A DNA stretch of 27,542 nucleotides from Promethearchaeota archaeon (GTDB lineage: Archaea > Asgardarchaeota > Lokiarchaeia > Sigyniarchaeales > SOKP01). Below are positions 981 through 21,562 of this stretch, one piece after another. The DNA lies in the NCBI GenBank assembly GCA_019058015.1, contig JAHLWH010000089.1:1-27542 (forward strand). Direction: 5' to 3'. The position numbers and the translations under genes are program-made. Below the pieces are notes generated by a model. That model was not told the origin of the DNA. It saw nothing but the letters and a program-made list of their open reading frames with translations, and did no database searches. Every line of letters starts with the position of its first letter. Position 1 is the stretch's first letter.

Positions 981-1145
981 GCAGGGATAACCAAGTTGGT
1001 CAACGGTGCCGGACTCTTTTGGGAAAAAAGCTTTCTCATTAGCTGGACTCAAGATCTAATTAATATGATTTCCGTTGATCTTACTAATTTCAGATGGGAT
1101 ATCCGGTGAGATAGCTCTTCGTGGGTTCGAATCCCACTCCCTGCA
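981..1145 (+). tRNA. trnL: tRNA-Leu(CAA) with two introns (1015-1048 at 32/33; 1054-1100 at 37/38)
   Basis: Acceptor stem GCAGGGA/TCCCTGC with A73, anticodon stem CCGGA/TCCGG, long variable arm, T-arm GTGGG-TTCGAAT-CCCAC. Both inserts fold into bulge-helix-bulge motifs, and the spliced loop is CU-CAA-GA. Confidence 0.88.
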
Positions 1146-5789: not shown

Positions 5790-6725
5790 GTGACTACTAA
5801 AGATGAAAACGAGATAAATTTTGAGAAATGCCCGGAATGTGGTAATTTCTCGGTTATTTCAGATTTATCTAGAGGGGAAATCATTTGCAACACTTGTGGA
5901 TTAGTAATTAATCAAAGAATTATTGATTCTGGACCAGATTGGAGAGCGTTTTCATCAGAAGAGAAAGCTAAAAAAATTCGAGTTGGAGCTCCTTCAACAT
6001 TTACACTACACGATAAAGGATTAAGCACAACAATTGATTGGAAAGATAAAGATGCACATGGTAAAAAAATTAGTCCAAAAATGAAAGCAGAAGTTCATAG
6101 ATTAAGAAAATGGCATACTCGATCACGGATACATAAATCAATTGATAGAAATTTGGCAAATGCTATGAATGAGCTAGATAGATATTGTTCTCAATTAAAT
6201 CTACCGAGTACTATTAAAGAATCGGCAGCAATAATATATAGAAAGATGGTATATAAGAATTTAATAAGGGGTCGATCAATTGAAGCTATGTTAGCAGCTT
6301 CCTTATTCACAACTTGTAGATTAAAGGGTTTACCTAAGACTTTGGACGATTTTATCGAATTTTCTTCCATTACAAAAAAAGAGTTGGGGCGTTGCTATAG
6401 ATTAATATTAAAAGAATTAAATATAAGAAATATAAGAGTATCATCACCAATCGACTTTATTCCAAGATTTTGTTCGGATTTGAGTTTATCAGGTAGAACT
6501 CAAAATAAAGCCGCAAAAATCCTACAGTTAGCTCAAAAACATTATATTACTGCAGGAAAAGCACCTACAGGTTTAGCTGCAGCTTCACTTTACATCGCTG
6601 CAATTCAAACTGATGAACGTCGCACCCAAAAAGCGATTGCAGATATTGCTGGAATAACAGAAGCAACCGTAAGAACTCGGTATAAAGAGCTAATATTAAA
6701 ATTAAATTTTAATATAGAACATTAA
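5790..6725 (+). CDS. tfb: Transcription initiation factor IIB (TFB)
   Basis: Zn ribbon CPECG...CNTCG, B-reader IDSGPDWRAF, LHDKGLSTTI, and two cyclin repeats (GRSIEA, GKAPTGLAAA, ITEATVRTRYKEL). Confidence 0.97.
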   Translation: MTTKDENEINFEKCPECGNFSVISDLSRGEIICNTCGLVINQRIIDSGPDWRAFSSEEKAKKIRVGAPSTFTLHDKGLSTTIDWKDKDAHGKKISPKMKAEVHRLRKWHTRSRIHKSIDRNLANAMNELDRYCSQLNLPSTIKESAAIIYRKMVYKNLIRGRSIEAMLAASLFTTCRLKGLPKTLDDFIEFSSITKKELGRCYRLILKELNIRNIRVSSPIDFIPRFCSDLSLSGRTQNKAAKILQLAQKHYITAGKAPTGLAAASLYIAAIQTDERRTQKAIADIAGITEATVRTRYKELILKLNFNIEH

Positions 6726-12216: not shown

Positions 12217-12305
12217 TTCTGGTATCATCCACGTAATATATTATTTCAAATTTTTGTTTTTTGATTTTTTTTATAACCAGATATATATTATTAAGTGAAT
12301 TTTTT

Positions 12306-13412
12306 ATGGAAAGTTTCATTAAAGCAGCAAAAAAGAGAGAATTGGTTAAACGTAAAGCTCAAACACTATGTTCAGCCAATATAAAAATTATTGGGACTGG
12401 AGGAGCCGGAAATAATACAATACATCGTCTTATGAAAATAGGAATTAGAGGTGCAACTTGTATTGGAATAAATACAGATAAACAACATCTAGATGCAATA
12501 GATTCTCATCAAAAAATATTAATTGGCAGAAATTTAACGAGGGGGTTGGGTGCCGGTGGAAATCCGTCAATTGGAAAAGCAGCTGCGGAGGAATCAAGAA
12601 AAGAATTAACTCATGCATTAAGAGATTCAGATCTCGTTTTTATTGCCTGTGGGGAGGGTGGTGGAACAGGAACTGGAAGTGCTCCTGTAATTGCAGAAAT
12701 TGCAAAGTTAGAAGGAGCAATTGTAGTTAGTGTTGTCACTTTACCATTTAAATCTGAAAAAGGAAGAATGGAAAAAGCCCTAAAGGGGCTTAACATATTA
12801 AGACAATATGTAGATACTTTAATCGTTATTGATAATAATAATTTATTAGAAATCGCCCCAGATTTACCTTTATTAGAGGCATTTAGCGTTGCGGATGAGG
12901 TTTTGGCTACAATCGTAAAAGGAATTACGGAAACCATTTCATTACCGTCATTGATTAATCTAGATTTCGCAGATGTGAGAACTATATTATGTGCTGGCGG
13001 TGTGACCATAGTGGGCGTAGGAGAATCAAATAATCCTGAAAATCGAGTTGAGGAAGCGATTAACGATGCGTTGAATTCCCCCTTATTAGATTTGGATATT
13101 CAGGGTGCAAAAGGGGCATTAATACATGTAAGCGGTGGTCCCGATATGACATTGGGGGAAGTCAATAAGGTTGCTGAAATAATTTCAGAGAAAATGGATT
13201 CAAAAGATGCGCTGGTAATTTGGGGAGCGAGGATTGCAGATGATCTTGAAGGATTTATTCGAGTTATGTTATTACTTACTGGTATTAAATCTCCTCAAAT
13301 AACAGGAACTGGTTATAATCCAAGACCAGCTATATTGGATCCTAAAATTCCCAGATCACGACCTACACTAAGTGATGCAATGTTTAAATTAAATGAAGTT
13401 TCTACTGAATAA
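12306..13412 (+). CDS. ftsZ: Cell division protein FtsZ (probably archaeal FtsZ2 type)
   Basis: GTGGAGNN, INTD, GLGAGGNP, GGGTGTGSAPV, T7 loop LINLDFAD. TETISLPSLINLD resembles the FtsZ2 subfamily. ATG at 12306. Confidence 0.95.
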   Translation: MESFIKAAKKRELVKRKAQTLCSANIKIIGTGGAGNNTIHRLMKIGIRGATCIGINTDKQHLDAIDSHQKILIGRNLTRGLGAGGNPSIGKAAAEESRKELTHALRDSDLVFIACGEGGGTGTGSAPVIAEIAKLEGAIVVSVVTLPFKSEKGRMEKALKGLNILRQYVDTLIVIDNNNLLEIAPDLPLLEAFSVADEVLATIVKGITETISLPSLINLDFADVRTILCAGGVTIVGVGESNNPENRVEEAINDALNSPLLDLDIQGAKGALIHVSGGPDMTLGEVNKVAEIISEKMDSKDALVIWGARIADDLEGFIRVMLLLTGIKSPQITGTGYNPRPAILDPKIPRSRPTLSDAMFKLNEVSTE

Positions 13413-18253: not shown

Positions 18254-18353
18254 AGAGGGGTAGGCTAGCCTGGTTTATGCTGCAGGGCTCATAATTGGTA
18301 TCTGCCATTAAGAAACCCTGAGATCGTTGGTTCAAATCCAACCCCCTCTACCA
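18254..18353 (+). tRNA. Initiator tRNA-Met(CAT) with a 21-nt intron at 37/38 (18294-18314); CCA encoded
   Basis: A1:U72 acceptor AGAGGGG/CCCCTCT, G11:C24, three consecutive G:C pairs in the anticodon stem (CAGGG/CCCTG), T-arm GTTGG-TTCAAAT-CCAAC, ends ACCA. Confidence 0.95.
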
Positions 18354-20602: not shown

Positions 20603-21562
20603 ATGAAATGTAGCTATTGCGAAAATAACAGTATATATCACAGAAAACATTCTGGTGAAAATTTATGCGGTAATTGTTTTAATAAATCTATTGAGCACCA
20701 AATCTATAAAACGATTTCTAAATTTAAAATGTTGAAACCACAAGATAAAATAATCCTAGGTTTATCTGGTGGGAAGGATTCGATGGTACTTCTATGCAAT
20801 TTAATTACGATACAAAAAAAAATTCCTAATTCTCCTTCGATTATTGCATTAACAATTAATGAAGGTATTTCAGAATATAGAGAGAAGTGTATAATAAAAT
20901 CTAAAGAATATTGTAAAATAAACAAAGTCAAGCATAAAATTATTTCATTTAAAGAGAAATTAGGAAAAAGTATGTATGAAATTTTGGAAATTTATAAAAA
21001 TAATTATGGAAAAATTTATCCATGTAATATATGTGCAACAATTAGACGCCATTTGCTCAATGATGAAGGAAAAAAATTAGGTGGAACCGTTTTAGTTCTA
21101 GGACATAACTTGGATGATGTTTCTCAAACATTCTTAATGAATTTTTTACGAAAAGATTTTAACAAAATTTCAAGAATGAATCCATTTCTTGAAGAAAATA
21201 ATAAAATATACATGAAAAAGATAAAACCTTTAATGAAAATTCCCGAAAAAGAAATTCTTCTGTATGCTCAAAACAAAGAGTTAAATTTTGTTAATGTTCC
21301 TTGCCCTTATAAAATAAAATACCCGATTTTACGTAAAAGAGTGCAATCATTTCTAAATAATTGTGAAGAATATAGTCCTGAAATAAAATTTAACCTCTTC
21401 AAAGGCTTTGTGGAATTATCTGATATTTTATGGGAATATAATAAAAAATTAAGGGGAAAAAAAATTAACTTTAATACTTGTAAAATTTGTAATCAACTTT
21501 GCGGAAAAAATAGAGAAATCTGCCTTTTTTGTGAAATAAAGGAAAAAATAGCTCCTTATTGA
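20603..21562 (+). CDS. tRNA 2-thiolation protein (TtuA/Ncs6/CTU1 family)
   Basis: N- and C-terminal Zn fingers, SGGKDS, CNIC...RR, GHNLDD, CPY. Confidence 0.92.
   Translation: MKCSYCENNSIYHRKHSGENLCGNCFNKSIEHQIYKTISKFKMLKPQDKIILGLSGGKDSMVLLCNLITIQKKIPNSPSIIALTINEGISEYREKCIIKSKEYCKINKVKHKIISFKEKLGKSMYEILEIYKNNYGKIYPCNICATIRRHLLNDEGKKLGGTVLVLGHNLDDVSQTFLMNFLRKDFNKISRMNPFLEENNKIYMKKIKPLMKIPEKEILLYAQNKELNFVNVPCPYKIKYPILRKRVQSFLNNCEEYSPEIKFNLFKGFVELSDILWEYNKKLRGKKINFNTCKICNQLCGKNREICLFCEIKEKIAPY

Follow-up and report, generated by a model that had tools for sequence, protein, structure and literature searches.

A tRNA-Leu(CAA) gene of Promethearchaeia with two probable introns and its anticodon on a five-nucleotide exon

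The interrupted gene and its two probable introns

The window, that is the whole stretch of 27,542 nucleotides (nt) analysed here, is contig JAHLWH010000089.1 (contig C81 in our numbering) of the assembly GCA_019058015.1 from a Promethearchaeota archaeon, which comprises 3.84 Mb in 283 contigs with 29.4% G+C and is 94% complete (genome G000). Near the start of the window, on the forward strand at positions 981-1145, stands a tRNA-Leu(CAA) gene, a class II tRNA body in which 86 extra nt (1015-1100) lie between C32 (1014) and A38 (1101). These extra nucleotides fall into two inserts, between which a very short middle exon carries the anticodon (Table 1). It is very probable that 981-1145 is the sole functional tRNA-Leu(CAA) gene of this Promethearchaeia (Loki-type Asgard) genome, and that its two inserts are protein-spliced introns removed by the pathway proposed below.

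Excision of both inserts in silico yields a sequence that ARAGORN recognizes as an 84-nt tRNA-Leu(CAA) with all stems of the cloverleaf intact, and after excision of either insert singly the program reports tRNA-Leu(CAA) with one intron at the other position. The product has the hallmarks of a class II tRNA-Leu, namely a long variable arm, a leucine anticodon, a D stem of 3 base pairs (bp) and A73, the discriminator base at 1145, after which CCA is not encoded. A73 and the long variable arm are identity elements of archaeal tRNA-Leu. The three exons lie in collinear order inside a stretch of 165 nt, which rules out a split or permuted tRNA gene. The original prediction, made from the letters alone, was of a double-intron tRNA-Leu(CAA) with the anticodon on a 5-nt micro-exon; the sequence, the in silico splicing and the conservation among orthologues described below all uphold it, and every coordinate, splice position and pairing that it named is present in the sequence.

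Both introns are embedded in complete bulge-helix-bulge (BHB) motifs of the hBHBh′ type, each with a central helix H of 4 bp, two 3-nt bulges on opposite strands and flanking helices (outer, h; inner, h′) of at least 2 bp. According to the accessible part of PMC4307357, archaeal introns are cleaved after the second bulge nucleotide and before the third. The predicted cuts of both introns obey this rule, and removal at these places restores the standard cloverleaf. An exhaustive search, in which every BHB-like candidate was removed and the product tested with ARAGORN, returned 142 permissive solutions for this gene; of the five that ranked best, Leu(CAA) alone has two complete motifs (H of 4, h of 2 and h′ of 2 bp). 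Applied as a census to the 36 candidate tRNA genes of the genome, the same procedure was too permissive for the intron maps of the other genes, and it was used for the Leu(CAA) gene and the set of Leu genes.

These 36 candidates had been collected by an intron-blind search for a T arm enclosed by matching acceptor strands. The genome holds one gene each for Leu isoacceptors UAA, UAG, GAG, CAG and CAA, and a second Leu(CAA) gene, for which the original prediction had advised a search, was not found by the T-arm and acceptor search in the 94% complete assembly, which leaves 981-1145 as the one place from which this genome can supply tRNA-Leu(CAA). The Leu(CAG) gene is uninterrupted. The genes for Leu(UAA), Leu(UAG) and Leu(GAG) (C40:17098-17215, C75:13432-13533 and C87:22196-22305, respectively) each have an insert in the D loop; they were missed by ARAGORN with its intron option as well as by the Rfam tRNA model, and were found through the acceptor strands around the T arm.

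Table 1. Coordinates of the tRNA-Leu(CAA) gene, its introns and the predicted splicing motifs in the window
Feature	Position	Strand	Remarks
Exon 1	981-1014	+	Acceptor 5′ strand, D arm, anticodon stem 5′ strand, C32; little or no variation among 46 aligned orthologues
Intron 1	1015-1048	+	34 nt, position 32/33; internal 7-bp hairpin 1020-1026/1032-1038
Middle exon TCAAG	1049-1053	+	U33, anticodon C34 A35 A36, G37; invariant in 46 of 46 aligned orthologues
Intron 2	1054-1100	+	47 nt, canonical position 37/38
Exon 3	1101-1145	+	A38, anticodon stem 3′ strand, long variable arm, T arm, acceptor 3′ strand, A73
Acceptor stem	981-987 with 1138-1144	+
Anticodon stem	1009-1013 with 1102-1106	+
Long variable arm helix	1108-1110 with 1115-1117	+
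T arm	1121-1137	+
BHB motif 1	1007-1051	+	Outer helix h 1007-1051, 1008-1050; inner helix h′ 1016-1042, 1017-1041
BHB motif 1, central helix H	1009-1012/1043-1046	+	C-G, C-G, G-U, G-C
BHB motif 1, bulges	1013-1015, 1047-1049	+	3 nt each
BHB motif 2	1043-1106	+	Outer 5-bp helix h: 1102-1106 with 1043-1047 (stand-in) before removal of intron 1, with 1009-1013 afterwards
BHB motif 2, central helix H	1048 (or C32 at 1014) and 1049-1051 with 1095-1098	+	One G-U
BHB motif 2, bulges	1052-1054, 1099-1101	+
BHB motif 2, inner helix h′	1055-1057/1092-1094	+
Intron 2 core CCGTTGA(TC)	1072-1080	+	Reverse complement of D-loop/D-stem letters 998-1006

The gene in related genomes

Three other assemblies of the genus contain the 165-nt gene with 98-99% identity, and in other genera it is found at 71-84%. 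The three further assemblies exclude an assembly artefact, which, for the 34-nt insert, had been named among the findings that would overturn the prediction. Orthologues were surveyed with an exact 15-letter pattern from the 5′ end, which gave 79 matches in 78 of the 135 genomes of the family; together with similarity matches, 81 genes were collected and 77 of them parsed. Four were left out of the parse: L029 and L032 are other tRNAs, L085 is cut by a contig end, and L090, whose anticodon arm is uninterrupted, carries a D-loop insert. Introns at both 32/33 and 37/38 are present in 57 of the 77 genes, and in eight of these the T loop contains a third insert. Only the 32/33 intron is found in 12 genes, which belong to a subgroup of one genus (g2), only the 37/38 intron in seven (five in the family and two in a neighbouring family), and neither in a single gene, L018. 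Intron 1 is thus present in 69 of the 77, and in seven orthologues C32 runs directly into TCAAG. In the 12 orthologues with intron 1 only, as well as in L018 and L090, intron 2 is absent and G37 is followed directly by A38 and the stem. Since the introns occur separately and each junction is uninterrupted in some relative, they are two independent units, and the gene is a multiple-intron tRNA gene with two independent BHB introns.

The third insert, of about 30 nt, lies in the T loop of L014, L038, L045, L046, L048, L053, L058 and L071. Genus g2 has two body types of Leu(CAA): the first (L072, L076-L080, L082-L084, L088, L089 and L091) has a stem GTGGA/TCCAT, a different variable arm and T stem, and the 32/33 intron only, whereas the second (L073-L075, L081 and L086) resembles the gene of the window and has both introns; L018 and L090 stand in addition to these sets. 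The two body types may reflect a gene replacement.

The pairing of motif 1 is maintained through exchanges on both strands. Its central helix is paired in 238 of 248 cells over 62 distinct sequences, compared with 19-109 of 248 when the partner strand is slid by one to three places. Compensatory exchanges are seen at pair 27:n-2 (C-G in 47 sequences, G-C in 11) and at pair 28:n-3 (C-G in 43, U-A in 16). Of the flanking pairs, the outer pair 25:35 is formed in 46 of the 62 orthologues and the inner pairs in 50 and 44. When 46 distinct double-intron genes are aligned with MAFFT, the central helix is likewise 96.2% paired, with CG in 39, UA in five and UG in one sequence at pair 28:n-3, and the first h′ pair is UA in 24 and CG in 13. 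Because these exchanges are compensatory, it is complementarity that is kept and not the direct repeat in the window, which exists only since CCGG is self-complementary. The central helix of motif 2 pairs in 45-46 of the 46 sequences and its first h′ pair in all 46. Both BHB motifs that had been predicted are complete, motif 1 with compensatory changes and motif 2 conserved. Beyond the splicing motifs, the helix of the variable arm is paired in 100% of cases and has undergone an exchange of all three pairs, GAG/CUC in 32 versus CUC/GAG in 13-14 of the 46 sequences (alignment columns 131-133/138-140), a further sign of a living tRNA. The exon letters are conserved across six genera and the interiors of the introns drift. 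This conservation in relatives, with compensatory change, indicates that the gene is more than a chance pattern.

Several points have to be weighed against this reading. The letters GGACTC stand at both 1011-1016 and 1045-1050, and any excision of 34 nt that starts at 1011-1017 leads to the identical product. Owing to this repeat the mature sequence cannot tell the register of intron 1, and it is solely the bulge rule that places the intron at 32/33. Furthermore, motif 1 is not perfect in every orthologue, a single pair of its central helix being mismatched in some (10 of the 248 cells), and since the anticodon fixes motif 2 on its exon side, the constancy of the central helix there reflects conservation and not covariation. 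The survey reached only those orthologues that keep the exact 15-letter start, and 57 of the 135 family genomes gave no match. Finally, a search of sequencing runs listed no RNA run that contains the locus, and one DNA-type and three metatranscriptome runs, searched as Logan contigs, put nothing on 990-1103, a result that bears neither way; these runs gave short T-arm matches only, with 90-99% likeness, which probably derive from other tRNAs.

Splicing order, the core of intron 2 and rival identities

The genome encodes two homologues of the splicing endonuclease EndA. One, the alpha subunit (contig C235, 200 aa), is most like the catalytic subunit 3p1z_B of A. pernix (E 1.2e-34) and keeps Y, H and K; its loop GINKPR aligns with the A. 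pernix loop such that K-P-R stands opposite K44-P-R46. In the other (contig C115, 206 aa) the catalytic His is replaced, and it is therefore assigned as the structural beta subunit. [quoted passage not shown] RtcB is encoded as well. The CSL and its Lys confer a broad substrate range, as described in the available portion of PMC3241643, and Asgard (alpha-beta)2 EndA with a CSL has already been published (PMC5829648, in excerpt). It had been proposed that multiple introns at such positions need an endonuclease of relaxed specificity. The genome does encode a broad-specificity alpha with the Lys and Arg of the CSL, together with beta, but strictly such an enzyme is not required, both motifs being complete hBHBh′.

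The two motifs use overlapping bases. Positions 1050-1051 (C34 and A35) pair in motif 1 as its outer helix but also take part in the central helix of motif 2, and 1043-1046 are needed for motif 1's central helix as well as for a stand-in strand of the anticodon stem that they provide for motif 2 before any splicing, in the primary transcript. As the motifs share bases, only one of them can exist in a molecule at any moment; as each survives the removal of the other intron, no fixed order of splicing follows. The earlier claim that splicing must be sequential is thus correct in that the motifs never form simultaneously, but it does not extend to a set order. RNAfold gives a free fold of -52.0 kcal/mol, which contains motif 2, and the two conformers are close in energy, with -51.8 kcal/mol when motif 2 is forced versus -49.6 kcal/mol when motif 1 is forced. 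Of 59 distinct genes, 20 have an intron 1 that ends in U or A instead of C, and there the C32-G pair of motif 2 could form only after excision of intron 1, which leans weakly toward intron 1 being removed first in those species.

Based on these features, a pathway can be proposed in which transcription, cleavage sites, rounds and order are all inferred. A precursor of at least 165 nt would be transcribed from the gene and would present both introns, within the 7-nt anticodon loop, in complete helix-bulge-helix-bulge-helix motifs. An EndA of the heterotetramer type, composed of alpha with the CSL and beta, would cut each 3-nt bulge between nucleotides 2 and 3, and RtcB would join the exon ends. 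With four cuts and two joins in total, maturation would proceed in two cut-and-join rounds in either order, and CCA would be added after splicing, since it is not encoded. We infer that the mutual exclusion of the motifs keeps the 5-nt exon covalently attached to one of the large exons, so that it is never lost.

Intron 2 contains a core that is complementary to letters of the D loop and D stem (Table 1). Its letters CCGTTGA(T) (1072-1079) are kept in 54 of 56 distinct introns from six genera and also in two versions of 27 nt, and the flanks drift. One rather unlikely elaboration of the pathway is that the mutually exclusive motifs act as a built-in cut-join-cut-join switch that never frees the 5-nt anticodon exon, and that pairing of the core with the D loop steers folding or holds the precursor inactive. 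If true, archaeal tRNA splicing would here have a folding guide borne by an intron, something that the literature searched does not describe. An unlikely alternative to free order goes further and proposes that splicing is strictly ordered with the help of intron 2: the core would pair with the D loop and lengthen the outer helix of motif 1, which is weak with its 2 bp, such that intron 1 is removed first and intron 2 second. The retention of the core agrees with this, as does the fact that its pairing with the D loop is possible in 97.2% of cells; in addition, RNAfold with motif 1 forced builds just this 9-bp helix, adjoining the outer helix of motif 1, and the 20 genes whose intron 1 does not end in C point in the same direction. 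However, no pair between core and D loop changes on both sides, four sequences have C for U in the D loop without a matching change in the core, and the core is also present in six orthologues that lack intron 1. Moreover, when the window sequence was shuffled 300 times, a duplex of the same length arose in 38 cases, and the conformer with motif 2 is predicted to be slightly more stable than that with motif 1. Among the interrupted tRNAs of the genome, no comparable complementarity to the D loop was seen in the 21 other genes examined. Removal of the introns in either order is therefore the reading that is retained here.

In Euryarchaeota, a C/D box guide RNA resides in the intron of tRNA-Trp. 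An analogous C/D box RNA in intron 2, with the core as guide or box, is highly improbable: a conserved element inside an otherwise drifting intron, the UGAU-like letters within the core and the CUGAUGA-like letters at the 3′ end of many orthologues would be in keeping with it, but Rfam on 900-1250 with E up to 10 found no significant family other than tRNA, neither a 5′ box C nor a box D is conserved over 56 aligned introns, and the 3′ letters are explained by the pairing of motif 2. In addition, 47 nt is short for a double-guide small RNA (sRNA). An sRNA-bearing intron, which would have conserved boxes C, D′, C′ and D with guides of 10-12 nt, was rejected, as these boxes are not conserved in the 56 aligned introns. 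An interpretation of the core by eye as a kink-turn (K-turn) was dropped as well, because its partner strand is needed for motif 2.

That the locus is a pseudogene in decay or an artefact of the assembly, with inserts that are junk and never spliced, is equally hard to maintain and has a very small chance of being right. It would account for the failure of default gene finders. However, the gene is the only one for Leu(CAA) in the genome, its exon letters are conserved across six genera in which the intron interiors drift, its splicing helices are maintained by compensatory changes, and all 165 nt are also present in the three other assemblies of the genus.

The behaviour of the gene finders bears on a last alternative, a tRNA-Lys(CUU) with a single 81-nt intron at the canonical place. 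The original prediction had warned of exactly this miscall, and ARAGORN with its intron option, given the unspliced gene in the genome or as an excised stretch, indeed returns Lys(CTT) with an 81-nt intron, i(40,81). With default settings ARAGORN finds no gene in the whole window. In a run of Rfam at the gathering threshold over the whole window and the whole genome, the Leu(CAA) gene was missed and only the tRNA at 18254-18350 was found in the window; with lax filters on 900-1250, Rfam places a tRNA at 981-1145 (42.2 bits) with an 85-nt insert. In archaea, the shape with a long variable arm is that of Leu and Ser, not of Lys. The Lys(CUU) identity, for which ARAGORN's call is the evidence, has practically no chance of being correct and is already refuted by the orthologues, seven of which run from C32 directly into TCAAG and 14 from G37 directly into A38 and the stem; in the gene itself the body is of class II with a 3-bp variable-arm helix that covaries (32 versus 14 sequences), position 37 would be U, and at the Lys boundaries the central helix has three of four pairs and the inner helix none. 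The assignment as tRNA-Leu(CAA) with two introns thus stands, and standard finders, which either miss the gene or call it Lys(CUU), will lead automated annotation of Promethearchaeia genomes to report a missing Leu isoacceptor together with a spurious Lys.

Other tRNA genes of the assembly were noted in passing. Two near-identical loci (C241:234-339 and C245:126-231) are called tRNA-Pyl(cta) with a 28-nt intron by ARAGORN, and permissive BHB removal turns them into Ala(CGC) with a non-canonical insert; these calls are probably miscalls like that of Lys(CTT). The tRNA at 18254-18350 of the window (forward strand) is an interrupted tRNA-Met(CAT) that scores 49.8 bits with Rfam and has a 23-nt insert 3′ of the anticodon; when cut at 37/38, its motif has three of four central pairs as judged by eye. 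An A1-U72 pair is present, and the anticodon stem has three G-C pairs at its foot; these are marks of an initiator tRNA, and presumably it is one. Among the neighbouring genes, at 5790-6725, 12261-13412 and 20603-21562, are those for TFB/TFIIB, FtsZ and a PP-loop tRNA thiolase resembling TtuA, with no evident tie to the tRNA gene.

Relation to known multi-intron tRNAs

Multi-intron tRNAs, the iterative removal of closely spaced introns and the heavy interruption of tRNA genes in Asgard archaea have all been published before. An intron at position 32/33 was reportedly recorded by Marck and Grosjean in 2003. The non-canonical intron positions listed in the available part of PMC4090602 do not include 32/33. 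The multiple-intron tRNAs of Thermoproteales have been linked to an alpha-beta EndA (PMC4033280 and PMC4090602, both in excerpt), and as far as these excerpts go the gene described here resembles them in several respects: two or three BHB introns are present, one of them at 37/38 and the others non-canonical; finders built for single introns miss or miscall the gene; and cutting is ascribed to an alpha-beta EndA with the CSL, which in the present case is predicted from the genes. It differs in that it belongs to the Asgard phylum and in that its 7-nt anticodon loop is interrupted by both introns, which leaves a middle exon of 5 nt. The original prediction had associated such genes chiefly with Thermoproteales. 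The association holds, but they are not confined to that order, the arrangement being typical of the present Asgard family and multiple introns being known from Asgard archaea (PMC5829648, PMC11291895, bioRxiv 10.64898/2026.10.13.758758).

Some archaeal tRNA genes have two or three introns so close together that one has to be removed before the second BHB can form, as described for tRNAscan-SE 2.0 in the accessible part of PMC8450103. The present gene shares with these cases the overlap of closely spaced motifs. Unlike in them, as there described, the primary transcript can already adopt either motif, because intron 1 ends in letters that mimic a strand of the anticodon stem, and neither intron has to be removed first. 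In Asgard genomes most tRNA genes are interrupted, often several times (PMC11291895; bioRxiv 10.64898/2026.10.13.758758; both in part). The gene agrees with the Asgard tRNAs presented there in its non-canonical and multiple BHB introns, in repeated gain and loss, in being missed by annotation programs and in an (alpha-beta)2 EndA with the L1/CSL. Those studies centre on Atabeyarchaeia, Freyrarchaeaceae and Jordiarchaeaceae, in contrast to the Promethearchaeia considered here. The terms ‘lokiarch’, ‘promethearch’ and ‘micro-exon’ are absent from the main text of the 2026 Asgard preprint, as far as it was accessible, although its supplementary tables may list such genes. Thus, the exact arrangement, with a 5-nt anticodon exon between introns at 32/33 and 37/38, may already be in print.

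A parallel outside the archaea is eukaryotic tRNA-Leu(CAA), in which the 37/38 intron is required for the modification of C34 by Trm4, as noted in the part of PMC4090602 consulted. The two share the isoacceptor, the canonical intron position and an intron kept for a long time in evolution. They differ, on the same excerpt, in that recognition relies on the BHB in archaea and on a ruler mechanism in eukaryotes, in that the eukaryotic genes have one intron, and in that an intron-dependent modification is not indicated here.

What is new is the family-wide natural series at one locus of Promethearchaeia; in other respects the gene is an expected instance of a known phenomenon. The series, with both introns, either one, neither, or a third insert in the T loop, shows the gain and loss of introns in the closest prokaryotic relatives of eukaryotes, and it could serve as a test bed for the action of an alpha-beta EndA on overlapping substrates and very short exons.

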